Part shown: in pieces, positions 1,782-47,030 of the stretch
How positions within the stretch are numbered: position 1 is the first letter of the stretch
Layout: every line of letters begins with the position of its first letter
From: Planctomycetota bacterium
GTDB lineage: Bacteria > Planctomycetota > UBA8108 > SXIK01
DNA length: 64,000 bases
NCBI GenBank assembly: GCA_965223265.1
Contig: OZ244999.1
Location: forward strand, 768,001 to 832,000
Direction: 5' to 3'
Made by a program: the position numbers and the translations under genes
Notes under the pieces: model-generated
What the model was told of the DNA's origin: nothing
The model's database searches: none
What the model saw: the letters and a program-made list of their open reading frames with translations, nothing else

Positions 1782-1836
1782 GAAAGCCTCTGTCGAGCGG
1801 ATTCGTCGATGGCGGTCGAACCGAATCAACGATCTT

Positions 1837-3156: not shown

Positions 3157-3795
3157 CGGGAGTCGTTAGGTGCGAGAAAGGGTCGAGACGGAACTTGGTG
3201 CATCGGGAGAAGTGTGCCACACGGAGTACTTCGTCGTACGTCGCGCGCGATTCAACGGCGGCAGCCATCGATCGCGCCGCTCGGGCTGCGTTCGTCGCCG
3301 CAGCTCAAGCCGTGAAGTGCGCGGATTCACCTGGGGGCGGATCGGGTCAGCGGAAGCGTGCCCGTTCCGGGTCGAAAGTTGTGGGAGCGCTTACCGCACT
3401 CCCTTGATACAGGTACAGTTCAGGTGTCCGAGCGAGTCCATCGCAGCAATCCCTTCGCAGGAATCCATCGCGAAAATGATAGCGTTTTGCGAGTCGTTGG
3501 CGAGCGCGTGTGGCGTCGCCAAGAAACCCATCCTAGGTGGCGGACGGCGCGGATGCAATACGATTTGTGACCCCAGCGAGCAGAAACACACAGTCCCGCG
3601 GGCAGCGGAATGGCAGCTGGATGTACGGGGAGGCGGTCGATAGAATCCGGTTTTGCTTTTTTTACCTACCCAGCGGGCCGTCCAGATCGGCTCAAGGCCG
3701 CCCATCGACAACTCGCCGGACGCGCTCTACCTCCACAAGGCGGCGCTCGTTTCCGGCGTGCCAGACGGCGATGACCAAAACTTGAAGGAGGAACT

Positions 3796-4404
3796 ATGGC
3801 TTACGAGTTGCCATCTCTACCATACGCCTACGACGCGCTGGAGCCGCACATCGACGCCAGAACGATGGAGATCCATCACACGAAGCACCATCAAACGTAT
3901 ATCAACAATGTCAATGCGGCGCTGGAGGGGCACCCCGCGCTCGCGGCGAAGTCGGTCGAGGACCTCGTCAGCGACCTGGCTTCCGTACCAGAAGCGATTC
4001 GCGGGGCGGTGCGCAACAATGGTGGCGGGCACGCCAATCACTCCCTTTTTTGGCAGATCATGGGGCCGGGAAAGGGGGGCGAGCCGGGCGGTGACGTAGG
4101 CGCAGCGATCGCGTCGACGTTTGGCAGTTTCGGCGCGTTCACCGAAGAGTTCGCGAAGGCGGGCGCGACCCGTTTCGGATCGGGGTGGGCGTGGCTGGTC
4201 GTCGAGGGCGGCAAGCTGGCTGTCACAAGCACGCCGAATCAGGACACTCCGCTCTCCGAAGGCAAGACACCGATTCTTGGTCTCGACGTGTGGGAGCACG
4301 CCTACTACCTGAATTATCAAAACCGACGTCCTGACTACATCAAGGCGTTCTGGAACGTTGTCAATTGGGACAAGGTCGCCGAGCTTTACGCGGCAGCCAA
4401 GTGA
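3796..4404 (+). CDS. sodA: Superoxide dismutase [Mn/Fe]
   Basis: [38 protein letters not shown] and DVWEHAYY; AAGGAGG Shine-Dalgarno upstream. Confidence 0.96.
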
Positions 4405-28347: not shown

Positions 28348-29478
28348 TTGACCGAATCACATACACCGCCAGCTACGAACGGCGGGGTGGCCAGCGACGA
28401 CGACTCAGTCGCTCAGGGGCAGCTCGAAAGCGCGCTGTCTGGGAGAGACTTGCTCGACACGGTTGATCGCCTTGATTCGATGATGGATGCGGTGCGCGAT
28501 CAGGTCGAGCAGGTCATCGTCGGCCAGGCGGCGGTGATCGAAGAGATCCTTATCGCACTGTTGGCGGGAGGCCATGTCCTCCTCGAAGGCGTCCCTGGGT
28601 TGGCTAAGACTCTGTTGGTACGGACACTCGCGTCCACGTTATCTCTCGATTTTGGGCGCATTCAGTTTACGCCGGACTTGATGCCGGCGGACATCACAGG
28701 GTCGCAGGTCCTCACCCAGCACCGTGGTGGCCAGTCGCGCGGTCTCGCGTTTCAAGCTGGGCCGCTATTCGTCAACTTGCTCTTGGCTGATGAGATCAAT
28801 CGCACACCTCCGAAGACGCAGGCGGCGCTTCTCGAGGCTATGGCGGAGCGACAGGTCACAACCGGCGGGCGACGTCGTCCTTTGCCACCACCGTTTTTTG
28901 TTCTCGCAACGCAGAACTCGATCGACCAAGAGGGGACGTATCCTCTTCCCGAGGCGCAGCTCGATCGATTCCTCCTCAAGGTTGCGGTTGACTACCCGAG
29001 CTACGATGAGGAGGAGCTGATCCTCAGACGGACGACATCCGATGCAAGCGCAAGCGCGGGTCAGGTCCTCAGTCGTGAACACGTCTTGGCCTTGCAGAGC
29101 ATCGTCTCGTCTCTGACCGTCGCGCCCAACGTTTTGCATTACGCGACGCGACTCGCCCGGGCTTCCCGGCCCGAAGCGCCGGAATGTCCGTTGCATTTGC
29201 GTCCGGCGATCGCGTGGGGCGCCGGGCCACGCGCGGGGCAATCTTTGGTCGTGGCTGCAAAGGCGCGAACTCTCCTCCGAGGCCGCTTTGCAGTGACCTG
29301 GGGCGACGTCCGCGCCGTCGCCGTTCCAGTTCTCCGGCATCGAATCATTCCCAGCTTTGAGGCTCAGGGTCGAGGACTGGACGCCGATCGGATCGTGCGC
29401 TCGCTCATCGATCAGGTGTCGCCGTTCTCAGAAGGAAGTGCGCATGACGGGGCCCTCCGGAAAATTCTTCGACGCTAA
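28348..29478 (+). CDS. MoxR-family AAA+ ATPase
   Basis: HVLLEGVPGLAKT, RIQFTPDLMPADITG, LLADEINRTPPKTQAALLEAM and EGTYPLPEAQLDRF. Confidence 0.96.
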   Translation: MTESHTPPATNGGVASDDDSVAQGQLESALSGRDLLDTVDRLDSMMDAVRDQVEQVIVGQAAVIEEILIALLAGGHVLLEGVPGLAKTLLVRTLASTLSLDFGRIQFTPDLMPADITGSQVLTQHRGGQSRGLAFQAGPLFVNLLLADEINRTPPKTQAALLEAMAERQVTTGGRRRPLPPPFFVLATQNSIDQEGTYPLPEAQLDRFLLKVAVDYPSYDEEELILRRTTSDASASAGQVLSREHVLALQSIVSSLTVAPNVLHYATRLARASRPEAPECPLHLRPAIAWGAGPRAGQSLVVAAKARTLLRGRFAVTWGDVRAVAVPVLRHRIIPSFEAQGRGLDADRIVRSLIDQVSPFSEGSAHDGALRKILRR

Positions 29479-32880: not shown

Positions 32881-35216
32881 ATATGGCCGAAAGACTCCTC
32901 AGAGGGCTGTTTGGCGTCGACACAGATTCCGACGCTCGCCTCGAATGGCTTGGCGCGCCGTACGGACTCGGCGGGTGGTTCGCATTCTTCCTCGCCGCCG
33001 CGATCGTGACCATCATCGTAGTTGTCTATCGTCGCGAACGCCGTTTGCGTACGTGGCAGCGTCTGCTGCTTGCAACGCTCCGTCTCTTCGCTTTTGCGAT
33101 GGCTTGTTGGATCCTGCTTGATCCGCGTGTGGTCAGAGAGCTCAAGGTCGAGAGACGTGGACAGGCGATCGTACTCGTTGACACGTCGACAAGCATGGAT
33201 GAGCTCGATCCGTCTCAGCAGCAGCAACTCTCTGACAACCGTTCGGCGATCCAGCATTCGCGACTGCAGCAGGCTGTTGATGCGCTCGAGACGCAAGATA
33301 CGTTGTCAGAGCTCGCAGTGACCCATGACGTGCGCCTCTTTGGCTTCGATCGGTCGATCGGTCCGGTTACGGACATCGATGATCTCCTCGCTCCTCTTGA
33401 AGTCGCTTCGGCTGCCGACGCTGAGCCCGCCGTCTACAGCCGCGATGGAACACATCTTGGCAGTGCTATGCGAGCAGCTTTGGAGAGCGTTCAGGGTGAC
33501 CCTGTTGCGGGAGCTCTGATTCTCTCGGATGGTCGATCGACCGGAGGCGAACCGTGGGCTCGAGTCGTCGAAGAGTACGCTGTTCGTGGGGTGCCGGTCT
33601 TCACCGCTTGCCTCGGGGATGAACGGGTTGAGCGTAATCTTTCGGTGTCCAACTTCTCGGCGCCGGAGATCGCTTCTGTGGGATTCAGCATTCGTCTGGA
33701 CGCAGAGGTCCGGATTGTTGGGTTTCAAGGACAAAGGATTGACGTCACGCTCGAACGTGTTGACTCCAACCGCCGACGTCAGCAGATCGCGAAACGTGCG
33801 ATTGCAGTGGAGTCAAGCACGATCGTTGAGCGGTTCGCGTTCTACGACGCGGCCGAGGAAGAGGGAGACTACGAATACGTTCTGCGTCTGCCGCTGCACA
33901 ACAGAGAGAGCGAACACAGCGACAACTCGCGCCGCGTTCGCGTGAACATTCGCAACGAATCCATGCGGGTGTTTCTTCTCGCTGGCAGTTCGACCGCCGA
34001 GTATCGGCGACTCGTTCGATTCTTGACGCGTGATCGAGAGCTTGTGACTTCATGTTGGCTTGCTGGTGTCGGCGCGGATTACCCCCAAAGAGGCGATGCT
34101 CCGATCGGGAAGCCACCACGCCGCCTCTCAGAGCTCCGAGACTACGACGCTGTGATTCTCCTCGATCCGGCACCGAAGTCACTCGACGACGAGGTATTCA
34201 TGGCTGCGCTCAAAGAACTCGTTGTTGAGCACGGAACCGGGTTGGCCTACGTTGCCGGGGAGAACCATTTGCATCCTGGCGCCAATCGATACTTGGCGCC
34301 GCTGCTGCCGGTGGAGTTCGATGGCGGCGGCTGGGACTCGCGTGCGCCATACACCGCACTCTGGCGTCCGATCCTGACGCCGCGCGGACTCGAGCATCCG
34401 ATCTGCCGGCTCCGCGACGATGCTGAAGAGAACGCGTCGGTATGGCTTCGGCTTCCCGGATTCTATTTCTTCGCTGACGGCGCCAGGTTACGCCCGGCCG
34501 CCGTCGAGCTTGCGCGGCACCCTGGTGGAAGCGTTGCTGCTGCGATTCTCCGAGCCGGGAGCGGGTTGTCGATCTACCTCGGTACCGACGATCTCAACCG
34601 CTGGAGTCACGCGCGGCAACCCGGACTGCACGAGCGGTTCTGGTCTGGCGTGGTGCGATTCTTGGTTGCCGGGAAGCGGCTTGCTGGAAAGTTCGCGAGT
34701 GCTCTCTACGTTGACTACGACCGCTACGAAATCGGCGAACGAGTTGAGATTGAAGCGAGCGTTTTGGATGCTGAGAGGGTCCCGGTCGTGCGGTCGCAGA
34801 TGAGCGTTCAAGTGGTGCACGACGGTACGACGGGCATCTCTACGACGCTGTTGTCCCCCGTCTCCGGCCGTCCCGGTTGGTACCGTGGCGCTCTCGAGCC
34901 GAAGGCTGCAGGAGGCTACGCCCTCCGAATGGATGGGGGCGCCGAGGCGACGTTCCGCGTCGTCGTCTTGGCGAATGAGAGCGCCGATTTGACGCCGGAC
35001 CGTTATGCGATGAACGAAATAGCGCGTCGAAGCGGCGGCGAATCGCTGGCGCTCGATTCACTCAGCGAAGTGATTGATCGACTTCCCGACCGTTCGTTCA
35101 CCGAGGTCATCGGCCGCTCGCTCGTGTCGCTGTGGGATTCAGCGTGGGTCCTCGGCTTTCTCTGCTGCGCTTTGATCCTCGAGTGGATTCTCCGCAAACG
35201 ATGGAGTCTGAATTGA
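32877..35216 (+). CDS. vWA plus glutamine-amidotransferase-like domain membrane protein
   Basis: VLVDTSTSM (MIDAS), ILSDGRS, YDAVILLDP and C-terminal LWDS...EWILRKR. GTG overlaps the upstream stop. Confidence 0.85.
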   Translation: MNMAERLLRGLFGVDTDSDARLEWLGAPYGLGGWFAFFLAAAIVTIIVVVYRRERRLRTWQRLLLATLRLFAFAMACWILLDPRVVRELKVERRGQAIVLVDTSTSMDELDPSQQQQLSDNRSAIQHSRLQQAVDALETQDTLSELAVTHDVRLFGFDRSIGPVTDIDDLLAPLEVASAADAEPAVYSRDGTHLGSAMRAALESVQGDPVAGALILSDGRSTGGEPWARVVEEYAVRGVPVFTACLGDERVERNLSVSNFSAPEIASVGFSIRLDAEVRIVGFQGQRIDVTLERVDSNRRRQQIAKRAIAVESSTIVERFAFYDAAEEEGDYEYVLRLPLHNRESEHSDNSRRVRVNIRNESMRVFLLAGSSTAEYRRLVRFLTRDRELVTSCWLAGVGADYPQRGDAPIGKPPRRLSELRDYDAVILLDPAPKSLDDEVFMAALKELVVEHGTGLAYVAGENHLHPGANRYLAPLLPVEFDGGGWDSRAPYTALWRPILTPRGLEHPICRLRDDAEENASVWLRLPGFYFFADGARLRPAAVELARHPGGSVAAAILRAGSGLSIYLGTDDLNRWSHARQPGLHERFWSGVVRFLVAGKRLAGKFASALYVDYDRYEIGERVEIEASVLDAERVPVVRSQMSVQVVHDGTTGISTTLLSPVSGRPGWYRGALEPKAAGGYALRMDGGAEATFRVVVLANESADLTPDRYAMNEIARRSGGESLALDSLSEVIDRLPDRSFTEVIGRSLVSLWDSAWVLGFLCCALILEWILRKRWSLN

Positions 35217-37996
35217 TGGTGAAGCGGCCCAGGCGTCCTACCCTGCGCGATTCCCTCTTGGCTCTGAACCCAAGGATTCGTCGCTCTCTTCGGCAATTGG
35301 GGTGGTCGGAGATCGTCGTCGTCGTTTGCTGGGGATTCATTCTGTCGCTGGCTCTCGATCGCGTTTTGGAGTTGCCGTGGCTTCTTCGAGGCGGGATTTT
35401 TGTCGCACTCATCTTCGTGCTGACTGCTTTGGTGCGTCGAAGCCGGCGACGGTCGCGCGTCGCGGTGTCCACTGAGCAGTTGGCGACCGCCGCCGAGATT
35501 CGAGATCCGCGCTTGGAGGGTCGGCTCCTGAGCGCGCTCGAGTTGCCGAGGGAGTGGGCACGACAAAAAAAGAGCGGTGCATCAGCTCTGGAGATCGCGC
35601 TGACCGAGCGTGCGGTTCGTGAAATCGGCGTTGTCGCGAGAACTGTCGAGATCGACGGCTCTCTGGACCTGGCACGCGTGCGACGCTGGGTCGGTGCAGC
35701 TGCCCTCTCCGTCGTTGCCGCAGCAGCGGTCGCAGCTTGGCGGTCGAACGACCTCTCGGTTTGGTTTCATCGCGACGTTCTACTCCGGCAAGTCGACTGG
35801 CCGCGGCGAACTCACTACGTTCTATTTCCCGCACATGCCTCGGGCCAGTTCGAAGTGCACGTTGCTCGCCAACAAGATGTCGTTCTTCGGGGATGGGTTT
35901 TGGGCGTGCTACCAGAGGAGGTCCGCATTCAGCGCACGACGAGCGACGGTCGACCTGGCGGCGACCTGATCGTTCGCGTCGAGGGATACGAGCGCGTTCC
36001 CGACTCCGCGCTCCAGACTTGGCGTCAGGCGTTTTCCTCGAACGCCCCCGAGCCGGGAGCTCATGATCCGGCCCAGCGGGATCTGCGAGCAGGACTTAGC
36101 GGCTACCCCTTCGAAGTGTCGACCGGACGCCTCGACGAGTCGACGCAGTTCTTCGCGCGCGGTGGTGACAATCAGAGTCGCCGCATTGACGTCGTTTGCC
36201 ACGATCGACCGCGTCTTGAGGAGCGACGATACCAGCTGCGTTTCCCGAGTTATCTCAACATGCCGCCCGAGAATGTGGAGAATGTGGTTGGGGACCTCGT
36301 CGTCCCCGATGGAACTCATGTCGATGGCCTCTTCAGAGCCAGCACTCCGCTCGAGAGCGCTGAAGTCACGTTTGGTGACTCGGAGAGCCAGCCCCTAGAC
36401 GCGACGGTCGAGGAAGACACCGTTCGTTTCGGTTGGACGAGCAGTCGTACAGGAGTGCTTGAGGTCCGCGTCATGAGCCAGCCGTGGGGGATCAGCGCAT
36501 ATCCTTCCTTTCGACAGCCCGTGATCGTGGAGCCTGATCGCGCGCCAGACGTCACCCTGGAAATCGACAGCGAGTATCTCAGCGTCGCTCCCGACGCATC
36601 CATCGCGCTTTCGTCGACGGCCAGCGACGACCACGGCGTGTCCAGCTGGATCGTGCGCCGCTGGATCGGCGCCGCTTCAGAGCAGTCATGGAGCCGCGCG
36701 GAGAGCCAGCCGGACAATGAGACGGCCATCGACCTCTCACTCGTGAAAGACACAGCCACCGGCATCGACGCCAACGGCAGCCCGACTCACATTCGGGTGC
36801 AAGGAACCTATCGCGGCGAAATTGACCTGCGCCCACTCAGTCTCGCCCCAGGCGACCGGATCGTGCTGCAGGCAGCCGCGGCAGACAATCGTGAGCCCGA
36901 GCCTCAGTGGTCGGAGTCCCAGCACGAAGTCGTCACGGTCGTCGAAGCGGCGACGATCGTGCAGCAAACCGATCTGGCGCGCGTCGAGATCCAAGAAAAA
37001 CTGCTAGAACTCGCAGCCGTGGAAGAGCGCCTTGCCGGAAGCGTGGCTGGAGACCGTTCGGGGTGGGAGACAGAGGCGGAGACAGAGACGGAGACGGAGG
37101 CGGAGACAGAGGCGGAGACAGAGACGGAGACGGAGGCGGAGACAGAGACGGAGACAGACACAGAGACAGAGACAGAGACGGAGACAGAGGCGGAGACGGA
37201 GGCGGAGACAGAGGCGGAGACAGAGACGGAGACGGAGGCGGAGACAGAGACGGAGACAGACACAGAGACAGAGACAGAGACGGAGACAGAGGCGGAGACG
37301 GAGACAGATAATGGCTTCGCCTCCGGACCAGCCTCTGATTCTGCTTCTGGGTCCTCTGATTCTGCCTCCGCCGCTGGCTCTGCCTCGGATTCTGCCTCTG
37401 GTTCCTCTGATTCCGCCTCTGCTTCTGCCTCTGCCTCTGATTCTGCTTCTGGCTCTGCCTCCGCCTCCGCCTCTGCCTCTGCCTCTGATTCTGCTTCTGG
37501 CTCTGCCTCTGCCTCTGCCTCTGATTCTGCTTCTGGCTCCGCCTCCGCCTCTTCTCCTCCTGCCCCGAACCCTTCCAAGCGCCTTGCCGAGCGACAGCGT
37601 GCCGTCGCGGCGGAGGCGAGGGCTTTGAACGAGCGGTTCAAGAAGATGCGGCGAGCTCTGGAGGCGAATCGACTTCTGGATGAGGCGACGGCGGCGAAGT
37701 ATGAGCACGGGGTGGCGGAGCCGCTCGACGAGTTGGTGGAGGAGCGTTTGCCGCGTTCTGCTGAAGAGATCGAGGCGCTTTCAAAGTCTCGGGCCGCGGC
37801 GGAGGATGCGCGTGGGGTTGAGGAGGATTTGAAGGCGATGGCTGCTGACTTGCGGGCGATCGCGGAGAATCTTGCGGGGAGCGGTAGTGAGCGTGAGCTG
37901 ATCCACCGCCTTGAGATGATCCTCGAGTTGCAGCGGCAGGCGCGAGAGGTGACTGATGAGCTGCTGCGTCGGCCGCGGGAGGGGAATGGTCGATGA
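35216..37996 (+). CDS. DUF4175-like membrane-anchored protein with a low-complexity ET/EA and SA/SD insert
   Basis: Three N-terminal transmembrane segments, PSYL, PDRAP, ASDDHGV and coiled-coil tail. ATG overlaps the upstream TGA. Confidence 0.8.
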   Translation: MVKRPRRPTLRDSLLALNPRIRRSLRQLGWSEIVVVVCWGFILSLALDRVLELPWLLRGGIFVALIFVLTALVRRSRRRSRVAVSTEQLATAAEIRDPRLEGRLLSALELPREWARQKKSGASALEIALTERAVREIGVVARTVEIDGSLDLARVRRWVGAAALSVVAAAAVAAWRSNDLSVWFHRDVLLRQVDWPRRTHYVLFPAHASGQFEVHVARQQDVVLRGWVLGVLPEEVRIQRTTSDGRPGGDLIVRVEGYERVPDSALQTWRQAFSSNAPEPGAHDPAQRDLRAGLSGYPFEVSTGRLDESTQFFARGGDNQSRRIDVVCHDRPRLEERRYQLRFPSYLNMPPENVENVVGDLVVPDGTHVDGLFRASTPLESAEVTFGDSESQPLDATVEEDTVRFGWTSSRTGVLEVRVMSQPWGISAYPSFRQPVIVEPDRAPDVTLEIDSEYLSVAPDASIALSSTASDDHGVSSWIVRRWIGAASEQSWSRAESQPDNETAIDLSLVKDTATGIDANGSPTHIRVQGTYRGEIDLRPLSLAPGDRIVLQAAAADNREPEPQWSESQHEVVTVVEAATIVQQTDLARVEIQEKLLELAAVEERLAGSVAGDRSGWETEAETETETEAETEAETETETEAETETETDTETETETETEAETEAETEAETETETEAETETETDTETETETETEAETETDNGFASGPASDSASGSSDSASAAGSASDSASGSSDSASASASASDSASGSASASASASASDSASGSASASASDSASGSASASSPPAPNPSKRLAERQRAVAAEARALNERFKKMRRALEANRLLDEATAAKYEHGVAEPLDELVEERLPRSAEEIEALSKSRAAAEDARGVEEDLKAMAADLRAIAENLAGSGSERELIHRLEMILELQRQAREVTDELLRRPREGNGR
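37067..37306 (+). repeat. 40 tandem hexamers (GAGACA/GAGACG/GAGGCG/GACACA) containing an exact 102-nt tandem duplication
   Basis: Units 37097-37198 and 37199-37300 are identical; the tract encodes 80 aa of (E/D)(T/A). Confidence 0.92.
37331..37555 (+). repeat. Pyrimidine-rich hexamer tract (GCCTCT/GCCTCC/GATTCT/GCTTCT) encoding SA/SD/SG repeats
   Basis: Directly visible period-6 repeats. Confidence 0.9.
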
Positions 37997-38084
37997 AGAG
38001 GGCCTGCAGGGGTTCGATGTGGCGACTGGGAACGATTCTGCTTTTCTTGACTGCCGTGGTGACTGACAATTGAGGCGTGATCCA

Positions 38085-39773
38085 ATGAAGTCACGATTCA
38101 TTTCCAACATTGGTGATTGGCTCTGGATTGTCGTGGCTCTGGGCTGTTTGCCCTTCGCGAGTCGCGCACTTTTCGGCCAGAGCGACGTAGCGAACCTCGA
38201 CGCGGCGAAGCGCCTGCAGCGCGAAGTTGAACGGCGCTACCGAGGTCTCCGATCCGCGATCAGCGGGCTGATCAGCATGACGGAAGACGTCGATCGCGCT
38301 GAGCGTCTTGGATTGGCGCTCCGGCGCTCAGACGAGCTCGAGTTGCCGCGGCGGCTGCGTCGGGTGCGCCGCTTACTGGCGAGCCGGCGATTGCAATCAG
38401 CTGCTGACGAGGAGGCTTTGCTCGAGAAAGATCTTGAGCGCGTCCTCAAGTTGCTGCGCGGCGAAGACGACGCCGAGGCGGCGCGGCGCGATAAGGAAGA
38501 ATTGAAGGAGCTGCGCGAAGAGCTGGAGCGTCTCGAGCGACTCAAGGCAAAACAGGAGGAGGAGAGGAATGCGACGGAAGAGCTGACTGCGGGCGAGGCG
38601 CCATCCAGCGGTCAAGCGCTGGAGGAGCGACTACGCCAGCAGCGTTCACTGAAGCGCGACGCCGACGAGCTCTCCAAGAGGCTAAAGCGCAAAGCGGCGA
38701 GTCGACAGCGCGGAACGCCCAGCTCCGGCGGGCAGCGTGGGAATTCAGGACAACGCGGCTCCATGGGGAATGCCCAAGAGGCGATGGCGAACGCTGCGCA
38801 GCGCATGCGTGGAGCGGCGATGCGACTGCGGGCTCGCAACGTTCGCGGCGCCCGACAAGATCAAGACGAGGCATTGACGCAGCTTAAGAGAGCCGCGGAA
38901 GAGCTTGAGAATGAGATCGCGCGGCGGGCGGCTGACGCGCAGGCGAGTGTGATCGGGAAGATCGTCCTTAAGCTCTTCGCGCTCGTGACGGCCCAGGAGG
39001 CGCTGCGGCACGAGACGAACGAGCTTCATGCGGCGGACGATATGGAGCCTGCACAACTCCGCCGCGAAGCGCGTCGACTGGCTCGCGAAGAACGTCTTCT
39101 CAAAGTCGATGTGGACGACGTGCAGCGTCTTGTGGCGAGCAGTGAATCCACCGTCGTGGCTCCACGACTTATGGAACGGGCGCAGTCCGACCTGGAGAAT
39201 GCGGCGACGTTGCTTGCAGCTGGTGAGGCAGGGGACGTCGTGCAGTTCTTGCAAGCGGACGTGGAAAGTTCGTTGCGGGCCGTCCTCGAGGCTTTCAAAT
39301 TGGACATGGATAGCGGCGGTGGTGGTGGCGGTGGCGGCGGCGGTGGAGGAGGTGGCGGAAAAATGAAGAAGGAGAAGATCCCACCGGCCGCAGAGGTGCG
39401 TTTGATCTTGGCCGAACAGCGCCGCTTGTTCGATCGCACTCAGCGTCTTCGCAAGCTCGGGCTGCTGGGTTCTGGAGAGAAGCCTGGCGAGACTCAGCCC
39501 GTGAATCCAGCCCAGCTCGAATTGCTGCGGCAGGGGGAGCGACTTGCCGACAACGAGGCGGCGTTGGCCCGGCTTACCGAAGAGTTCCTCCGCGCGTACC
39601 CGAAGGTGGATGCATTTCTTCTTGGCGCGGAGGCGCCAACCGCGTCGCCGCAATTCGATCGAGACACCTTGCCTGACTTGGATGGTCGCGAGGGAGAGCA
39701 GAGCGTCGAGTCCAGCGACACTCGAAAGCCAGACCCGGAAGCGCGGCAAGTGCCGCCGAAGGAGGAGCCATGA
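38085..39773 (+). CDS. Hypothetical exported coiled-coil protein with a 15-Gly tract
   Basis: Signal-like N-terminus, long heptad regions and ..AEVRLI..EQ motif; co-oriented in the MoxR operon. Confidence 0.75.
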   Translation: MKSRFISNIGDWLWIVVALGCLPFASRALFGQSDVANLDAAKRLQREVERRYRGLRSAISGLISMTEDVDRAERLGLALRRSDELELPRRLRRVRRLLASRRLQSAADEEALLEKDLERVLKLLRGEDDAEAARRDKEELKELREELERLERLKAKQEEERNATEELTAGEAPSSGQALEERLRQQRSLKRDADELSKRLKRKAASRQRGTPSSGGQRGNSGQRGSMGNAQEAMANAAQRMRGAAMRLRARNVRGARQDQDEALTQLKRAAEELENEIARRAADAQASVIGKIVLKLFALVTAQEALRHETNELHAADDMEPAQLRREARRLAREERLLKVDVDDVQRLVASSESTVVAPRLMERAQSDLENAATLLAAGEAGDVVQFLQADVESSLRAVLEAFKLDMDSGGGGGGGGGGGGGGGKMKKEKIPPAAEVRLILAEQRRLFDRTQRLRKLGLLGSGEKPGETQPVNPAQLELLRQGERLADNEAALARLTEEFLRAYPKVDAFLLGAEAPTASPQFDRDTLPDLDGREGEQSVESSDTRKPDPEARQVPPKEEP

Positions 39774-41044
39774 GTCGCGTAGGAGTCCGCGTAGGTTTTG
39801 TTCGCCATCGTCGGCCGGTGCTCTCGAGAGTCGCCGCCGCCGTCGCATTCGTTTTCGTCGGCGTCATCGCTGCGGACGAGCCTCGACGGGATCGTGATTC
39901 TGTGACTCCCCGGGTGGATCCCGCTGCCGAATCGACCGAAGACGCTCCCGGCTCACTCGACGACGCGGCGCGTCCTGGTGGATCCGTCGGTACGCCTCGC
40001 TCGACGACAGATTTGTGGGACCGTTTTCTCGATTCCCTGCGTGCATCTGGGCGAGGCGACTTGATCGACGAGCTCTCGCTAAGTGATCGTGCTCGGCTCG
40101 ACTTTGAGCGCGGCGATCTCGTCCGGGCGGTACTGGCGCGCTTCACCCCAGAGCTTCGCAAGTTGCATGCGCTGTTTGCGGGTGATCGTGAGGCGTCGTC
40201 GTTGACGGTCGAAGAGTTGGACGTCGCGATCGCACAAGCTCGTCGGCTGCAGGAGGTCGAAAACCGATTCATCCGCTATTACGGTGACTATTACCGCGCC
40301 TCTTTGGAGCTCGAGATGGCTGACCGTAACTCCTCAGCCGATGCCGGTGATCGTCGCACTTTCGCTCGGGCTCTTCTTGAAGCGCTGGCAGTGGCGGATG
40401 ACTTCTTGCCAGTCGAACTGGCGCACCGCCGCCTGTCGGAGCTCTTCGTCGACTTGAACGAGACGACGCTCGCCATCTTGGAGCTCCAGCTCTTTCTCGT
40501 GGAACTCCCGGAGTCTCGCGCGAGCGAGCGTGCCGAGGCGGAGACGGCGCTCGCCCGGCTCAGAGAGAAGCCGAAGCATCCTGGGCCCGTCAGGGAAACG
40601 AGCCGCCGTATGAGGACAATTGCGGAGAGGTTGAGCGACAGCGATGTCGGTGCCGAAACCCAGCGTGAGGAAGCCGGTGTTGTCGCGGTACTCGACCGCG
40701 TCGCGCGCCTCCTCGAAAAAGTCGACGAAGCTGGCGGGCCGCGCCGCGCCTGCAGTGGAAGCGCGTGCAAACGGGGGAAGTTGGCACCGGGCTCGAAAGC
40801 TGCCAAGGGGCGCGGGCAGGGAACGGCGAATGCGCGTGGCGAAATCACCGACCATGCCAGTGGTCAGGCCGGTGGCAACGCCCTCAGGGAGGAGCCCGAG
40901 CGGCGCGACCGCGAACGCTGGGGCGAAGTGAACGAGGCCGATGTCGCCCGTTCTCTGCGCGAGGTTTGGGAAAAGCTGCCCGGTCGCTACCGGCGCGTCA
41001 TTTCCGACTACTTCCGCGACATCTCCGGTTTGGCTGACGAGTGA
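39770..41044 (+). CDS. Hypothetical exported protein, last gene of the MoxR operon
   Basis: ATGA overlap with the previous gene and GGAG upstream; C-terminal WG.....LPGRYRRVISDYFR motif. Confidence 0.75.
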   Translation: MSRVGVRVGFVRHRRPVLSRVAAAVAFVFVGVIAADEPRRDRDSVTPRVDPAAESTEDAPGSLDDAARPGGSVGTPRSTTDLWDRFLDSLRASGRGDLIDELSLSDRARLDFERGDLVRAVLARFTPELRKLHALFAGDREASSLTVEELDVAIAQARRLQEVENRFIRYYGDYYRASLELEMADRNSSADAGDRRTFARALLEALAVADDFLPVELAHRRLSELFVDLNETTLAILELQLFLVELPESRASERAEAETALARLREKPKHPGPVRETSRRMRTIAERLSDSDVGAETQREEAGVVAVLDRVARLLEKVDEAGGPRRACSGSACKRGKLAPGSKAAKGRGQGTANARGEITDHASGQAGGNALREEPERRDRERWGEVNEADVARSLREVWEKLPGRYRRVISDYFRDISGLADE

Positions 41045-41060
41045 TTGTTGGCACCGGTCC

Positions 41061-41095
41061 AAAAGCGCGTCATTCTGACGGTTTGACGCGCTTTT
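41061..41095. terminator. Bidirectional intrinsic-terminator-like hairpin
   Basis: AAAAGCGCGTCA-N11-TGACGCGCTTTT, a perfect 12-bp inverted repeat between convergent genes. Confidence 0.5.
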
Positions 41096-41354
41096 CGAGG
41101 TACCTCACAGTGTCGAGAAAACTTGAGCCTCGCACGGCCATGACCAGGTCGATCGGGTTGAAGTTCCGCTTGCAGCGAAAGCATCGCGCCAGATTCGTCT
41201 TCGTATTTGTAGCCGTGTCGAACTCTCCACAGCAGGGGCACAGGAAGCGTAGCCAACCGCCGCGGGTTTTCGTCGCCAGTTCCAGAGCGTGAATGGTCGC
41301 GACGATGTCCACTTCGTTTCGCAACCGTCGAAGGTGTTCTGCTGCGATTCTCAC
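41070..41354 (-). CDS. Stand-alone CHC2/primase-type zinc-finger protein
   Basis: 94 aa: VDIV..I...RFLCPCC...NLARCFRC..NFNPIDLVM......FLDTV..L, resembling the DnaG zinc-binding domain. GTG overlaps the istB stop. Confidence 0.8.
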   Translation of the reverse strand: MRIAAEHLRRLRNEVDIVATIHALELATKTRGGWLRFLCPCCGEFDTATNTKTNLARCFRCKRNFNPIDLVMAVRGSSFLDTVRYLEKRVKPSE

Positions 41355-41710
41355 GACTTCGTCCGCCTCTTTTTGCTCGCACGCGCCCTTCGTTCCTTCT
41401 CCCGCTGGTGTTTTCGCTCCTCAGACTCCTTGAGGCGGTAGGATTCCGCATCGATTTCCACCACCTCGCAGCGGTGAACAAGCCGGTCGACGAGGGTGAC
41501 AACCACGCCGGAGTTTGGGAACACATCGTTCCAGTCCTGGAAGCTCTTGTTGGTCGTCAGCACGATCGGCTTTTCCTGCTGGTAGCGTCGAGTGACAAGT
41601 TCAAAGAGTAAATCGGCGTGGTCTGCCGAGGTGGAGAGATACCCGAGCTCATCGATTACGAGTAGTCGCGGGCGACAATAGTGCCGTAGTCGTCGCTCCA
41701 GCGCCGAGGT
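41351..41710 (-). pseudogene. istB: IstB-like ATP-binding protein, C-terminal fragment (Walker A missing)
   Basis: LLVIDELGYL (Walker B), LLFELVTRRY, IVLTTNK.F..W...F and VDRLVHRCEVVEIDAESYR. Confidence 0.9.
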
Positions 41711-42135
41711 AGGAAGCCAGGTCGTACAAACGCCGAAGCGAAGCGGCCACAGAAACGGCACCGAAGCCTGCTCACCGGACGTTCAAAGCGCCCTGATGGC
41801 TCCGCGGTAGTGATGCTCGTCGTCTTCTCAGGCTCCGTTCGCTCCTGCGACCCGAAGATGTGTGCACCAGAAACCGTGGCGGTGGAACCCTGATGAGTCA
41901 CACCGAGATGTCGACGCCGCCAGCGACGCTGTCGACGGGTGTGGTTACGAGCACCAAGCGTGCTTTGCTGATAGCGTCGAGCTGCTCGCCGGATCGACTC
42001 GCATCGTGCAGCGTGCGAGCAGGCGCGAGAGCAGTATCGCTGTCCACGGTCGCAGCGACTGCAGATGACGACTTGCGCGTGGCAGCGTGAACACTGGTAG
42101 AGTCGAACGGAGCGTCCCTGGGCCGCAGCCACCAT
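41656..42135 (-). CDS. Cys-rich basic zinc-finger protein of the IS21-like element (3' end altered by the deletion junction)
   Basis: CSRC..QVVICSRCDRGQRYCSRAC...RYQ...G..NH..RQRR.R...VTHQGS...CRFCG. Confidence 0.75.
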   Translation of the reverse strand: MVAAAQGRSVRLYQCSRCHAQVVICSRCDRGQRYCSRACSHAARCESIRRAARRYQQSTLGARNHTRRQRRWRRRHLGVTHQGSTATVSGAHIFGSQERTEPEKTTSITTAEPSGRFERPVSRLRCRFCGRFASAFVRPGFLPRRWSDDYGTIVARDYS

Positions 42136-42441
42136 CGCACAGATCGGAAGGGTTTTGCGACCGAGACGATACTGCCAGAGTGGGGAGCCCCGGAGAGCGT
42201 CGAGACCTTGAAGGCGCGCCTTAGTAGTAACGCAACGGCCTTACCGAAAGAGAACGGAGTCGGGATGGTCGCTTCTGGTGAGTTGCCTCTACCCAAGCTA
42301 CGTATCCAGACGACGTTCTCGCCGGCTGAGGAGCCGGTCCGTCCCGGATCGCAGCGTGACCCTCTTGCGCGCTGCGAAGATAGCGTACTGACTCGAGGCT
42401 CTCCACTCCTGACTTCGACTAATCTGCCAGAGCTTGTTCGA

Positions 42442-44307
42442 TCAGTTCGTGCCGATTTCTTCTCGCAGGAAAGAGGAAGGTTTGTGCCTTCTTCTTATCG
42501 ATTCACCGGACCGAAACCGGAGTACGGTCGGAAGCTGCTTGCTGTAACGATCCGCCTGCCCCTCGGTCAACTTGGGGAGAATCTGCTCCTCTAGATTCAA
42601 CTGAGCCTCTACAAACTGCTCCATTACGCCCGGTGCTAGTCCGAGTCCCAACCTGGAGTTCGTTCCGTCCCGTTCGTCCTCCGGGAGGCTATAAACGATG
42701 TCCCGTGCGACGTCGATGAACTCATCCACAAAGGGGAGAATGGATTCGACCTGCCCGTCGTCCAGTGCATAGATTCGTCGGAGATCCCTTACCACGACTT
42801 GTGGGGCGTCCTCTTGATCAACACCGTATGTATAGTGAGACGCTCCGCCGTCGAACAGGTGCTCTGAAAACTCGCTTAGCGCCGGCCAGTATTCAAGTTG
42901 ATCGTCCGAAAGGATCTCTTCGACGCCGACCCAGGTTTCCATGATGGTCGAGCGTCGTACGCCGTATCGCTCCAACGGAGTCAGCCCGTCGACCGCAACG
43001 TCTGCGGTGGACGGTAACCGCTCGTTGAGTTTCTTTTGTTGCTTCTTCGTCAGCCCGAGCGATTCAGACACGATCGCTCGGATCAGTTGTCCGCGGATCG
43101 AATCGTCGAAGAAAGGACGTGGCGAAGCCGCTTTGATTCGTGCTTCGAATTGGCTGATCCCATTGCGAAATTTTGACATCCGCTCGCTCGTCTCCGCGGA
43201 GGGTGGGCCCTCCTCACGGATTTGCAGCGTGTCGATATTCTCGGCGAACAACACGGCAAGACCGGAAAGATCGATTAGCCCAGCGATTTCTCGTGAGGTC
43301 TCCTCCGTGCCGTCCTTCGTCGCGGTCTCAGAGGTCTTTCCAGCGGATTCAATCGCTAAGCGCTGGTCTGAGATGGTTTTTTCTAAGTTGCGGATCGTCG
43401 TACGACTTCGCTGAAGCTGGGATCGGGTGTCCTTGTACTGTCTTCGTAGAGTCTCCAGTTCGCTTCGCAGCCGCGAGGCTTCCCGAGTTGCCCTCTCGTC
43501 GTGTGTGGAGTCGTTATTCATCGTCAGTACGCTCACCCCAACGCTGCATACCGCAACGACGGCGATTGCGATTCCTACTGCTTTCTTCGTCACGATTGCT
43601 CCTCCTAAGAGTGTTGCAGAGCCATGAATCGTCGATGACGTTGTGAGCGTCTTGGCGACCGCCGCCGTAGTTCTTCCGACCGGCAGACTGCCGAGCAAGA
43701 GGAGGGTGGTTTGCCGTCCCTTCTTCTTCCACGTGCGAGTCGACGGAAGCATGTCGCGAAGTTGAGCTTCGAATCGGCGCCAGAGTCGATTGCGAAGCAG
43801 GTCTCTTCCCGTCTGTAGCCTCTTCTTAGCGGTAGCACTTGTCGTGCCTTGCGCTTTTGCGACTTGGCGGACGGATTCCCCTTCGTAGTAGAAGAGAAAG
43901 ACCGCTTCACGAACGTTCGCGGGTAGGCGTTGCACTTCGCTCCACAGTCGGTCGTTCAGTTCTCGAATCTCGCTTCGGTTCGCCGCATCCGGCTCAGCGG
44001 ATGGAGTCTCCTGGGTGAGTGATGCAGGGGGTGAACGTCGTCGTAACTCCTTGCGCGCTACGTTCCTGACGATGGTTAGAAACCACGGTCTAAAGCTCGT
44101 ATTTCGCTCCAGACGGTCAAGGTTCTTGAGGGCCAACAATGTTGCTTCCTGCACCACATCCTGGGGGTCGGCTGCGTTTGAGATGATGGCATGAGCTACC
44201 GCAAACGCCTTTTTTTGGTGGCGTACGACGAGTTCTTCGATAGAGCGGGGATTGCCTGCCCGCGCCTGTTGGACAAGTCTGGCGTCCGAAATGAGTGTGG
44301 TGATCAC
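42442..44307 (-). CDS. ECF sigma-70 factor with transmembrane helix and long C-terminal extension
   Basis: Region 2: D..LV..AR.G...DVVQEA.L.A..NL..L....FRPWFLTIVRN. Region 4: LP...REAVFLFYYEG.S...VA. Then a transmembrane segment, a coiled coil and LTxxQ-like motifs. Confidence 0.92.
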   Translation of the reverse strand: MITTLISDARLVQQARAGNPRSIEELVVRHQKKAFAVAHAIISNAADPQDVVQEATLLALKNLDRLERNTSFRPWFLTIVRNVARKELRRRSPPASLTQETPSAEPDAANRSEIRELNDRLWSEVQRLPANVREAVFLFYYEGESVRQVAKAQGTTSATAKKRLQTGRDLLRNRLWRRFEAQLRDMLPSTRTWKKKGRQTTLLLLGSLPVGRTTAAVAKTLTTSSTIHGSATLLGGAIVTKKAVGIAIAVVAVCSVGVSVLTMNNDSTHDERATREASRLRSELETLRRQYKDTRSQLQRSRTTIRNLEKTISDQRLAIESAGKTSETATKDGTEETSREIAGLIDLSGLAVLFAENIDTLQIREEGPPSAETSERMSKFRNGISQFEARIKAASPRPFFDDSIRGQLIRAIVSESLGLTKKQQKKLNERLPSTADVAVDGLTPLERYGVRRSTIMETWVGVEEILSDDQLEYWPALSEFSEHLFDGGASHYTYGVDQEDAPQVVVRDLRRIYALDDGQVESILPFVDEFIDVARDIVYSLPEDERDGTNSRLGLGLAPGVMEQFVEAQLNLEEQILPKLTEGQADRYSKQLPTVLRFRSGESIRRRHKPSSFLREEIGTN

Positions 44308-44805
44308 GACTATCTATGGGCTATGGGCGGGTGCTGAAATGTCAAAACTCGTAGTCACCGTGTATCCAGATCCTACTTCGGGAAAAAGGTGAACGGAAAA
44401 TTTCAATCACGAGAACCGATTTGTTGAACGTTGGGGGGCGCGGAGTGGAGACGTCAAAGACCACGGCTAGTCAGACGAGGCGGGGTACTCGTTGGTCGCT
44501 TCAGCGGGCCGGGTACTGCCGCGGGGTATGATCGGCAGCGCTGCTGACAGCGGGGTACTACGCGGAGAAACGTCAGAATGACGCGGATTCTAACCCGCGT
44601 TTACAAGTGATCGAGCGCGCGAGTCAGGTCTCCCGACCCTGGAGACTCGATGCGCAGGATGCAGCCTTTCGCGCGACGTCTGGGAGCGTCGGCGTGAGAG
44701 ATTCCGAATCGCGACGACGGCTCCACGAACAAGCACTCGGTCGCAATCCTTCCCGTCTGTGAGACGATCTATCCACTCACTGGTGCCGAAAAGGCGCCGC
44801 GGTCG

Positions 44806-46500
44806 CTACAGAGGACACTCGGGATTGGGTGTGGCGCAATCGGCGCTGGGTGCTGACGAGCACGCCGGCGTCAACGGATCGATCCAGTCGACCGGAAGGT
44901 CACCCGAGGCGAACAGAAAGTTGAGCAGAAAGATCATGTCACCGACGTCGGTCCGGCCGTCAGCGTCGAGGTCGCAGGCCGCTGCGCAGGGGGGGATCTC
45001 CGTATTGGGTACGAACAACCAGTTCAGGCCGAAGACGGCCGAACCGAGCTGTGGGATGGAGCCGATTCCGTCGCAGACCCCGCGAATGAAGCTGTTGCCG
45101 ATCGGGGTGGCGAAGGTCAGCTCTGATCCGTAGCAGCCGGTCGCGTCGTCGCGAAAGAACTGGATAGCGAGGAGATCTGTCTCGAGGGAGCTGTTGATCA
45201 GAATGGCGTCGAATGAGGTGTCGAGCGAACCCAAAAAACTCAGCTGATCGTCCCGAAGTCTCCATACATCGATCCAATCTGATCGATCGGCTGCCGTCCA
45301 GTTGAGGAGCATCTGGTTCGATCCCGGTAGGAATTCTTGACTGAATTCCGTCACCGCGTTGGTGTGGGGCGTCGTGCTGAGAACATTGAGTGTCGACGAG
45401 GTCAGAGTGGTCTCCGTGCCATCTTCGCAGACACCCCGAACGGCAAAGTCGTGTTCGCCAGCATCGAGATCAAACAAACTGACGGTCGATGCGGTTCCAG
45501 CCAGAGTCACTGCCTCGGCGCCGTCGAGAAGCACCTTCACTTCGTCGAAATTGCCTGGATTGATCCAGGTGGCGAACACGTCATTCACACCCTCTGAGGT
45601 CGAGTACCTGAACTGACTAGGCGTGAAATCAATCGGTGCGGTGCACTTGACTGTGGAACAATCCAAATTGCACGTTGTGTCAATAAAGCCACCACGATAG
45701 GCGCCTTCGTCGTTGAAGAGAAAGCCAATGTTGGTGATCTCCCAGGTCCCCGGCGAGGCGTTGATGAAGAGGAGACCATCGCGCCTTCCCGTCTCGGTCG
45801 ACGTTGCGAGTTGGAAAGTGCCCGACTGCACGAGAATTGTGTGACTTGTCGGTACCGGTTCGTTGCTTTCCCAAGTAACCACGAGATCGCAGAGTGCATC
45901 GGGGTTGACAACGCGTCCTTCGACACACGAGAGGTTCGCGACGTCAGCGAATGGCTGCTCTGAGAGCACCGTGATACTGGCTTCTGCGTCGCTTGGAACG
46001 CCAGCACCGGAAACCGTGAACGTTATGCGTCCGGCCGGAATGCCGCCAACGAAGGCGGTGTTGGTATTGGGAAGTTCATCGATTCCCAAGCCGTCGACGC
46101 GAATGCCGTCCCCGATACTCGCGCCGAATTCGTCCACGGCAGTGATGCGAACCCCAGTCAAGTTTGGTGACGTCTCATCCCAAATCAGAAGGACGGTGTT
46201 GCTCGCATTACCACTCGCTTCGAAGTCGGTCTGCAGCACGGCGAGTGCCTGAACGTTGCCGCCGGCGCCGTCTTGCGCTTGCGCCCGGGCGGAGCGCCAC
46301 GTCTCGACGTGAAACTTCCGACTGACTGCCAAGGGTTGATAGACTTCCAGCTCACCGAGATTGCCGAGAAATCTTCCTCGGTCGCGATGCGGTGGGGCGA
46401 TTTCCCACTCCGTCGTTGCGTTGGTCCGCAAACGATCCGCGCCGCAGAGAGTCGGATGCACAGCCGCAAGAGCGAAAACGGACACCATGAGAACGCGCAT
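44806..46500 (-). CDS. Secreted beta-rich protein with C-terminal dockerin-like domain
   Basis: Signal peptide from ATG 46500; C-terminal FIRGVCDG...PPCAAACDLDADGRTDVGDMIFLLNFLF. Confidence 0.75.
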   Translation of the reverse strand: MRVLMVSVFALAAVHPTLCGADRLRTNATTEWEIAPPHRDRGRFLGNLGELEVYQPLAVSRKFHVETWRSARAQAQDGAGGNVQALAVLQTDFEASGNASNTVLLIWDETSPNLTGVRITAVDEFGASIGDGIRVDGLGIDELPNTNTAFVGGIPAGRITFTVSGAGVPSDAEASITVLSEQPFADVANLSCVEGRVVNPDALCDLVVTWESNEPVPTSHTILVQSGTFQLATSTETGRRDGLLFINASPGTWEITNIGFLFNDEGAYRGGFIDTTCNLDCSTVKCTAPIDFTPSQFRYSTSEGVNDVFATWINPGNFDEVKVLLDGAEAVTLAGTASTVSLFDLDAGEHDFAVRGVCEDGTETTLTSSTLNVLSTTPHTNAVTEFSQEFLPGSNQMLLNWTAADRSDWIDVWRLRDDQLSFLGSLDTSFDAILINSSLETDLLAIQFFRDDATGCYGSELTFATPIGNSFIRGVCDGIGSIPQLGSAVFGLNWLFVPNTEIPPCAAACDLDADGRTDVGDMIFLLNFLFASGDLPVDWIDPLTPACSSAPSADCATPNPECPL

Positions 46501-47030
46501 GGGCACTCCAGCTCTTTTCAAGTTGAAGGGATCAAGGGGTTCGACGCCGCCAACCAGATCGGTTTGCTCTACCAACTCTGTGCCGCAGACACACCGCATC
46601 AGAGTCCCCTCCCTATCTCCCGTACAGATCCGGAATCTATTGTCCGGCCCGCCAAAGGTGGCGTCAACATGCGGTTCCGGGCAGCACGGTGCCGCGGGTG
46701 CCTCATGCGCCGCTCCAAGGCATACCACGTTCTGAGTCAGCCCCCGCGACCGACGCCCACCCGATACAACGGCCAGGCGGACGGCTCACGGCTGTCGAAA
46801 TGGCGGCTCTTGCTGTGAGAATGAGGGGGCTCGCACCGTTAGGCATGCAGAATAGCTCCGTCAATGGCCATGTTAGAGAGGAGAGACCGGTATTTGAGGG
46901 TATTTTGTGCTGAGAAATGATCGTTTTGGAGGATAATGCAGTCCTGGAATCGGCTCTTTGTCGATTCTGTGTCGATTTCAGAGTCCTCCGGCCTCGATTT
47001 CTTTCTAGATAGCCCGATTTGGAGCGATTT

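Follow-up and report, generated by a model that had tools for sequence, protein, structure and literature searches.

How does a complete sigma factor gene come to lie between the ends of an insertion sequence (IS)? The question is raised by a 3.56-kb element in the genome of a Planctomycetota bacterium (GenBank assembly GCA_965223265.1), which is a single contig of 9,179,496 bases (9.18 Mb; OZ244999.1). The window analyzed is the 64,000-nucleotide stretch at positions 768,001 to 832,000 of this contig, and coordinates refer to the window unless C1: is given for the contig. The element spans 41046-44605. It is a genuine but non-autonomous derivative of an IS21-type IS, and its ends enclose an intact gene that encodes a one-component extracytoplasmic function (ECF) sigma factor. 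Four open reading frames (ORFs) lie within it, all on the minus strand: the sigma gene, a Cys-rich ORF, an istB fragment and a CHC2 zinc ribbon ORF. An earlier reading of the letters of the window, here called the original prediction, had listed the same four ORFs. Pfam found the expected domains in all except the Cys-rich ORF, which was unmatched.

Results

One pair of IS21-type ends bounds the element

The left end (41046-41080) and the reverse complement of the right end (44571-44605) match without gaps at 25 of 35 positions. The inner 15 nucleotides, which begin at base 21 of each end, are identical, and the hexamer AGTGAT stands on both sides; letters and coordinates are as the original prediction gave them. 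The inner 15-mer CGCGTCATTCTGACG occurs twice in the window, once per strand, versus 0.03 occurrences expected (100 shuffles). The search of the whole genome that had been proposed for the ends found the 15-mer at these two places only, in opposite orientation, with a count of 0 for a control pattern. A general repeat listing of the window (7 inverted pairs) missed the end pair, which is a miss of the tool.

An end profile was built from 26 ends of 13 foreign IS21-family elements, and the element's own ends were excluded from it. The inverted repeat on the CHC2 side (IRR) ranked first both genome-wide (expectation value E 2.4e-4) and in the window. The inverted repeat on the sigma side (IRL) had E values of 0.17 in the genome, where it ranked fourth, and 1.2e-3 in the window, where it ranked second. 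Both align ungapped to the 26 foreign ends, whose elements encode IstA and IstB and come from other phyla, and a common pattern runs through all these ends: TGT, a GC-rich block, AAA.CGCG, then T.TG.CG. IRL is closest to the IRL of an element in genome G014 (L004), whose istA is truncated, and both ends have GAATCCGCG....TCTGACG. The element termini are TGT...ACA, which contain the TG...CA of the IS21 family, and AGTGAT on both sides falls in the 4-8 bp range of target duplications in that family. The IS21-family ends with target duplication that had been claimed are thereby borne out. Because the family norm is 5 bp, AGTGAT is either GTGAT plus one matching base or a 6-bp duplication.

Across their outer 20 nucleotides the two ends agree at just 10 positions, as they might if the inverted repeat and the AGTGAT pair had arisen by chance and the IS genes were unrelated debris. 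The probability of this is close to nil: the 15-mer occurs nowhere else in the 9.18 Mb, the ends follow, base by base, a family pattern that extends across phyla, and active relatives with several copies have an IRL and IRR that differ about as much (24-30 of 36 identical).

The profile scan found no further family end inside the element; the best interior score was 6.3 bits, on the wrong strand and within the sigma gene. One pair of IS ends surrounds the unrelated gene, and the element is not a two-copy composite because no second end lies inside, in agreement with the original view of a single pair. It is very improbable that the element is a collapsed composite, derived from two IS copies on either side of a resident sigma gene by deletions that spared the outer IRL of one copy and most of the second. 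IS21 elements often lie in tandem or nearby copies, and this one does have one large internal deletion (below), both of which would suit such an origin. Against it, ends from separate insertions would not be expected to have the same 5-6 bp beside them, a coincidence with a chance of about 1 in 1000 to 4000. Neither in the interval from the sigma gene to the Cys-rich ORF nor elsewhere in the element is there any vestige of a second IRL or IRR, and a relative lacks the sigma gene at the syntenic site (below).

The GC content is 0.576 for the element, 0.563 for the sigma gene and 0.577 for istB plus CHC2, versus 0.642 for the gene to the left and 0.6085 for the genome, which upholds the lower GC first noticed on a few lines of the sigma gene. 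Among equal-sized windows of the genome, the sigma gene ranks in the lowest 2.6% and the element in the lowest 4.6%. A promoter and terminator scan returned 0 promoter-like sites and 7 terminator-like sites versus 4.0 expected, and is uninformative.

istA is gone and istB is truncated

ORF analysis, Pfam and tblastn detected no istA in 41046-44605, and for lack of IstA the element is filed as an IS21 derivative rather than a full member. The istB remnant matches Pfam IstB_IS21 with E 2.2e-28 (99.8 bits versus a cut-off of 24.1; profile positions 144-236 of 238) and NCBIfam IS21_help_AAA with 104 bits, under the full-length cut-off of 200 (profile positions 141-232 of 232). Walker B is retained, Walker A is gone and the last ~45% of IstB is left. 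The remnant is 62% identical to the IstB of another element (L005) from residue 147, and the homology begins at residue 19 of the 136-residue frame. The homology of the Cys-rich ORF to its relatives ends at residue 142, and its last ~17 residues now run out of frame into the istB remnant. Because Cys-ORF homology stops at residue 142 and IstB homology resumes at residue 147, a single deletion at 41707-41710 took out istA entirely, together with ~146 codons at the start of istB, its Walker-A half. The element is non-autonomous, as had been proposed, because istA is gone and istB is truncated.

The Cys-rich ORF matched no Pfam or NCBIfam family. A role as a zinc-binding anti-sigma partner was considered for its product and rejected, since the ORF precedes istA in elements without a sigma gene and has hundreds of such relatives. 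A CHC2 ORF also follows istB in L005 and in the sibling element of this genome (below), and it is a regular accessory gene of planctomycete members. The Cys-rich and CHC2 ORFs are IS accessory genes, not cargo.

The sigma factor is a divergent one-component ECF protein

The membrane-anchored ECF sigma factor of the original prediction is encoded by an intact 621-residue gene with one predicted membrane helix. The protein consists of sigma2 and sigma4 (residues ~6-180), a linker, the membrane helix (~242-263), a coiled-coil helix (270-326) and a mostly helical outer domain (336-610). Pfam identifies Sigma70_r2 (E 4e-13) and Sigma70_r4_2 (E 1.7e-8), and NCBIfam TIGR02937 sigma70-ECF scores 72.8 bits versus a cut-off of 42.9; the protein thus has the architecture of ECF (group 4) sigma factors, in which sigma2 and sigma4 are present and sigma1 and sigma3 are absent. 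A single hydropathy peak of 2.6 is found at residues 243-261 and is preceded by KK. The AlphaFold model, with a mean predicted local distance difference test score (pLDDT) of 80.3, has a helix at 242-261, a long helix at 270-326 and a confident helical C-terminal domain. Its sigma fold resembles SigW (Z 16.6, root-mean-square deviation 3.0, 156 residues) and CnrH (Z 15.7). From the model we infer that the sigma domains are cytoplasmic and that the C-terminal helical domain is extracytoplasmic and signal-sensing.

The C-terminal extension matched no Pfam family. PDB searches with the whole 621-residue model were filled by sigma-domain matches and barely probed the C-terminal part, and a protein-atlas search returned only unnamed clusters with scores of 0.85 or less. 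The nearest relatives of the sigma factor are four proteins whose identity to it, 39-50%, is confined to the sigma domain. For the C-terminal domain, a set of 1.84 billion cluster representatives contains, apart from the protein itself, 91 remote relatives at 32% identity or less. Of these, 30 were checked: 21 are likewise fused to sigma2 and sigma4, and 9 are shorter and have no Pfam domain. The domain is present in 10 of 400 other sampled genomes of the phylum, at 21-32% identity. The bacterium's own genome contains no paralogue of it (best E 0.55), and the best sigma-domain paralogue there is 37.6% identical. The sigma factor is a divergent member of a sparse one-component ECF family, and from content and composition it is foreign to this genome.

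The sigma gene is bracketed by a perfect 10-bp inverted repeat (TCTCCACTCC at 42400-42409, its complement at 44442-44451), beside which no target duplication was found. Removal of 42400-44451 leaves ~418 bp from IRL to the Cys-rich ORF (42136-42399 together with 44452-44570), within the 108-573 bp of the family. Leader homology with the sibling in this genome runs for ~135 nucleotides from IRL and stops near 44470. Near the Cys-rich ORF the relatives' leaders are too diverged to fix the limits of the passenger segment, and none has clear DNA similarity to 42136-42399. The GTACCCCGC-like direct repeats just inside IRL (44488-44566) are also present in the sibling (L031:260-350), and they could be binding sites for a protein, either IstA or the Cys-rich protein. 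Coordinates of all features are collected in Table 1.

Table 1. Features of the IS21-derived element and its target duplication, in window coordinates
Feature	Position	Strand	Basis or remark
Target duplication, left copy AGTGAT	41040-41045		Contains TGA stop of 39770-41044 gene
IRR (CHC2 side), begins TGT	41046-41080	-	Top genome match to foreign-end profile, ungapped alignment to foreign ends
CHC2 (DnaG-type) zinc ribbon ORF, 94 residues, downstream of istB	41070-41354	-	Pfam Zn_ribbon_DnaG E 2.6e-6
istB remnant, ~residues 147-265 of 265-residue IstB	41351-41707 (ORF 41351-41761)	-	Pfam IstB_IS21
Cys-rich ORF, 159 residues (CxxC..CxxC..YCSxxC), first gene of IS21 subgroup	41656-42135	-	Homologues before istA
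Internal deletion junction	41707-41710		Cys-ORF homology end, IstB homology start
Non-coding stretch, probably inner IS leader	42136-42399	-	Leader length
Putative passenger segment, 2052 bp, limits uncertain	42400-44451	-	Bounded by perfect 10-bp inverted repeat
ECF sigma gene, 621 residues, intact	42442-44307	-	Pfam, NCBIfam, model
Outer IS leader with four GTACCCCGC-like repeats	44452-44570	-	Repeats begin 44558, 44529, 44516, 44488 (minus strand)
IRL (sigma side), begins TGT	44571-44605	-	Genome rank 4, window rank 2 with foreign-end profile
Target duplication, right copy AGTGAT	44606-44611		Same hexamer as left copy

The Cys-rich ORF marks a subgroup of IS21 elements

Relatives of the Cys-rich ORF, confirmed by tblastn, are found on 463 stretches in a species-genome collection (185,579 genomes) and on 509 in a metagenome collection. 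The best 80 of the 463 and the best 80 of the 509 were taken for further comparison. Full members of the subgroup consist of IRL, a ~300-bp leader, the Cys-rich ORF, istA, istB, sometimes a small accessory ORF, and IRR. Multi-copy members in Rhizobium, Mesorhizobium plasmids, Methylomicrobium, Halioglobus and a Phycisphaerae genome give exact limits and lengths of 3.25-3.9 kb. The Cys-rich ORF lies immediately upstream of istA in L004, L074, L031 and a RefSeq plasmid. RefSeq labels the two large genes of one plasmid copy an IS21 family transposase and an IstB helper. The intact istA-istB siblings that had been anticipated do exist with the same end type, in other phyla. One of them is L074, whose IstA scores 253 bits with NCBIfam transpos_IS21 (cut-off 160) and whose IstB passes Pfam IstB_IS21. 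Target duplications in the subgroup (17 rows) are 5 bp in 10, 8 bp in 1 and absent in 6. The accessory ORFs vary, and include the CHC2 zinc ribbon, a MarR-like helix-turn-helix protein (L074) and a 63-residue ORF (Methylotuvimicrobium plasmid).

In this element 2470 bp lead from IRL to the Cys-rich ORF, versus 108-573 bp, with a median of 325, in the 78 relatives with a mapped IRL. Another 80 relatives gave no strict IRL match. Upstream sequence was shorter than 600 bp in 40 of these, and elsewhere weak candidates were placed at 146-512 bp, with the exception of one match at noise level. The original prediction had also anticipated siblings with other cargo, which none of the 78 supplied.

The variable accessory ORFs of the subgroup, together with the position of the sigma gene upstream of the IS genes and in the same orientation, might suggest that the sigma factor is a lineage-specific accessory regulator of the IS that controls the transposition genes on envelope signals. 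This is a highly doubtful reading, against which it counts that the sigma gene is absent from other members (0 of 78 relatives and 0 of 9 loci in the phylum sample). Its own relatives are chromosomal, and IS genes or ends were found within 1.5 kb at 0 of 11 loci of remote sigma relatives.

Several other observations concern the subgroup at large. It spans Pseudomonadota, Acidobacteriota, Planctomycetota and others (e.g. L048, L059, L074, L096, L111 and L135). A 679-bp mini element in another genome (L022, G141:C114, 1313-1991 in the orientation of the Cys-rich ORF) consists of IRL, the Cys-rich ORF and IRR and is flanked by a 5-bp duplication, CGGGG; therefore, transposase-less derivatives of this family exist elsewhere. 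A similar ~632-bp unit terminates contig G037:C119 (L029). A stretch at 1378-3213 of L018 (G239:C31) was considered as a fusion of the Cys-rich domain to another protein and rejected. It is an IS remnant (IRL, leader and the 5' part of the Cys-rich ORF) that reads in frame into a 611-residue ORF, which we take to be sugar-phosphate-isomerase-like from reading its sequence, not from a family search. In the incomplete PLSDB gene table, 12 plasmid records are listed for the Cys-ORF match: 8 have no gene under it, 3 have a hypothetical protein and 1 record is unannotated.

The genome contains one disrupted sibling

One other member of the subgroup is present in the genome, at about C1:2465758-2473650 (L031 = C1:2465548-2468814), and its istA is split by a 3.38-kb insert. 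The same insert is also found at C1:6104029-6107410. No matching target duplication stands beside it. Between the leader and the Cys-rich ORF the sibling contains pieces of another IS (a transposase C-terminus and an AAA_22 N-terminus). This foreign DNA begins ~150-185 nucleotides past IRL (1272 bp in all).

A tblastn search of the genome with subgroup IstA found no cognate intact IstA, returning only the split copy, a distant IstA with 26% identity and one fragment. No gene product in this genome is expected to move the cassette now, because the sole subgroup IstA is split and the other IS21-type IstA is 26% identical. The suggestion that the element could be moved in trans thus finds no partner here.

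A second transposase-plus-ATPase IS was observed in the same genome. This IS is 4065 bp long and occupies ten sites, one of them L136:201-4265 (= C1:600413-604477). Its copies share 99.975-100% identity, which suggests recent activity. Its ends begin TGCTAAGTCCCACA and are flanked by 6-bp duplications. It encodes a Cys-rich ORF (weak DUF6431), a 634-residue Mu-type rve transposase, a 338-residue AAA_22 ATPase, a 97-residue ORF and a CHC2 zinc-ribbon ORF. The last of these (L136:3814-4131) is 51% identical in protein to the CHC2 ORF of the IS21-derived element (41070-41354) and 78% identical in DNA over 111 nucleotides. The sharing of CHC2 by two different families of this kind in one genome suggests the exchange of an accessory module.

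The insertion site is occupied in this genome and empty in a distant relative

The gene to the left of the element (39770-41044) is the last gene of an operon that starts with MoxR (AAA_3, 28348-29478) and continues with DUF58 and BatA, so that the operon was rightly named a MoxR operon. Its TGA stop codon lies inside the left AGTGAT, as had been read. The flanking genes are convergent, and their spacer minus the insert would measure 194 bp. Five related genomes were searched with both flanking proteins. The two best matches share a contig in just one of them, G001, an assembly of 4 contigs from the same family. The flank orthologues of G001 are convergent, and the 159 bp that separate them contain nothing but a hairpin, with no insert and no sigma gene. 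The remaining 4 genomes have these orthologues on separate contigs and are uninformative on the site. A DNA search of 41 related genomes matched the IS genes at only 65-79% and gave nothing useful for the flanks.

Two features of the neighborhood were observed in passing. The last ~100 residues of the right-flank protein (44806-46728, minus strand) are massively repeated in related genomes, with 138 matches in G001 and 144 in G003 as examples. This segment has no Pfam match, and its Asp/Gly-rich motif may resemble a dockerin-type calcium-binding module. On the left, low-complexity runs abound in two large genes of the MoxR/Bat operon (35132-39773). One region has long repeats of Glu/Ala/Pro and Ser/Val type, visible in both frames of 36904-38094, and the 567-residue protein has a 15-glycine run.

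The sigma gene probably arrived with the element

The sigma gene probably arrived as a passenger of the element. This is favored by parsimony, because a foreign gene lies in a foreign element of similar GC and no source copy is present in the genome. An IstA transposase made cuts 5 bp apart in the spacer of the two convergent genes and inserted both ends there, which duplicated GTGAT. The point of insertion coincides with the stop codon that terminates the last MoxR/DUF58/BatA operon gene. One internal deletion (41707-41710) left the copy unable to move by itself. In the most likely history, the sigma gene, on a ~2-kb segment ~150 nucleotides inside IRL and in the same orientation as the IS genes, would already have been inside the element at its entry to the site and to the genome, as the passenger of an IS21-derived cassette. 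The sigma gene may be transcribed from its own promoter or from a leader promoter, and the C-terminal domain may answer an outside signal.

An unlikely but not negligible course of events is that the IS landed free of cargo and that its leader acquired the ~2-kb sigma segment only afterwards, at this site, through illegitimate recombination or the arrival of a small unrecognized insert. The sigma gene would then never have traveled with the IS. The target duplication is compatible with either order, because it would look the same had the gene entered the leader after integration. The sibling also has foreign DNA ~150-185 nucleotides past IRL, which hints at a fragile or favored spot in the leader, and the perfect 10-bp inverted repeat surrounding the sigma gene and the lack of cargo in all 78 relatives point the same way. 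Later entry needs a second independent foreign arrival in the same 400-bp stretch of a foreign element. It also finds no source copy of the sigma gene in the genome and no target duplication by the 10-bp repeats, which barely exceed chance.

The following observations weigh against arrival as a passenger. The target duplication would be identical if the gene had entered the leader later. The genome contains one copy only, and the same unit was not found elsewhere. With a single copy and a duplication that fits either order, the original statement that the element mobilizes the sigma gene is not sustained. No cargo is present in the leader of any of the 78 relatives with a mapped IRL, none of which exceeds 573 bp, and the leaders at nine loci of the same phylum are 137-358 bp, with none longer; therefore, cargo is not a habit of the family. 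No close sibling of the IS was found, since among the best matches listed the identity of the Cys-rich ORF is at most 51% in the 185,579 species genomes and at most 62%, over part of the ORF, in metagenomes. No protein at least 50% identical to the sigma factor was found among about 15 billion. The 10-bp repeat that delimits the putative passenger segment is of marginal significance, with ~0.05 such pairs expected by count and similar 14-mer scores reached by shuffles. The empty site foreseen in the original prediction is supported in part: in G001 it is known by gene order from a distant relative whose flank proteins are 33-37% identical. Contigs of 4 public runs (2 samples, 1 study) contain the filled site only and no empty-site joint, and contigs cannot reveal rare variants. 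Passenger arrival nevertheless remains the favored account, and that the sigma gene moved with the element is likely rather than proven.

Discussion

The element shares with the IS21 family (IS21, IS5376) the TG...CA ends with repeated inner motifs, a 5(-6) bp duplication, an IstB remnant and siblings that encode IstA and IstB. Target repeats of 5 bp are described for IS5376 in the text available of PMC10122671. The element differs from the family in having no IstA, only ~45% of IstB, a CHC2 ORF after istB and a sigma gene in the leader, and its subgroup adds the Cys-rich ORF before istA. This first gene of a large multi-phylum subgroup is unnamed by Pfam and NCBIfam and often unannotated in PLSDB records, and its recognition is a useful point for annotation.

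The proposed cassette would be of the transporter IS (tIS) or mobile insertion cassette (MIC) type. Judged by the definitions in the accessible part of PMC3129680, the element resembles both in having a single pair of IS ends around a gene unrelated to transposition, and resembles a MIC in encoding no transposase. MIC-like movement would need the cognate enzyme in trans, because no transposase is encoded. The element differs from tIS and MIC in keeping IS accessory genes, in being a single copy and in having no cognate transposase in the genome; neither movement as a unit nor an available transposase was found here. According to a preprint (10.1101/2021.05.26.445724), only the IS1595 and IS66 families have so far been found to include tIS. 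PMC7371123 contained nothing relevant on IS21 passenger genes. A literature search for an ECF sigma factor as an IS passenger returned nothing on the subject, as judged by title or abstract. Passenger-carrying IS elements are already known; the locus adds one neat case of a regulator within a mobile element and does not amount to a new type of system.

Fused C-terminal extensions of ECF sigma factors are described as regulators in the available text of PMC7826278 and PMC7671368. The sigma factor here resembles the one-component ECFs that are common in Planctomycetes in its sigma2 and sigma4 domains, linker, membrane helix and extension. It is unlike them in lying inside a mobile element and in having an extension without a Pfam family. 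Pinto et al. (PMC7671368) describe duplication and fortuitous insertion of ECF genes in Planctomycetes, and the stem 'transpos' has 0 matches in the accessible portion of that paper. The original prediction had proposed that such elements contribute to the expansion of extended ECFs. The data examined lend no support to a general part of such elements in spreading ECFs: IS genes or ends are within 1.5 kb at 0 of the 11 relative loci, and 0 of the 78 family elements have cargo. A possibility is documented here and not a process, because the locus is one dead copy.

Sigma factors rewire whole gene sets, and from a transposable cassette with a self-contained sensor-plus-sigma protein a recipient could acquire the response to a new signal in one step. 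It is improbable, on present evidence, that IS21 elements with the Cys-rich ORF can take up a complete one-component ECF sigma gene in the leader and carry it between planctomycete genomes. If they can, such elements would be a physical vehicle for the patchy spread of sigma factors of this kind, whose C-terminal domain occurs in so few of the sampled genomes of the phylum.

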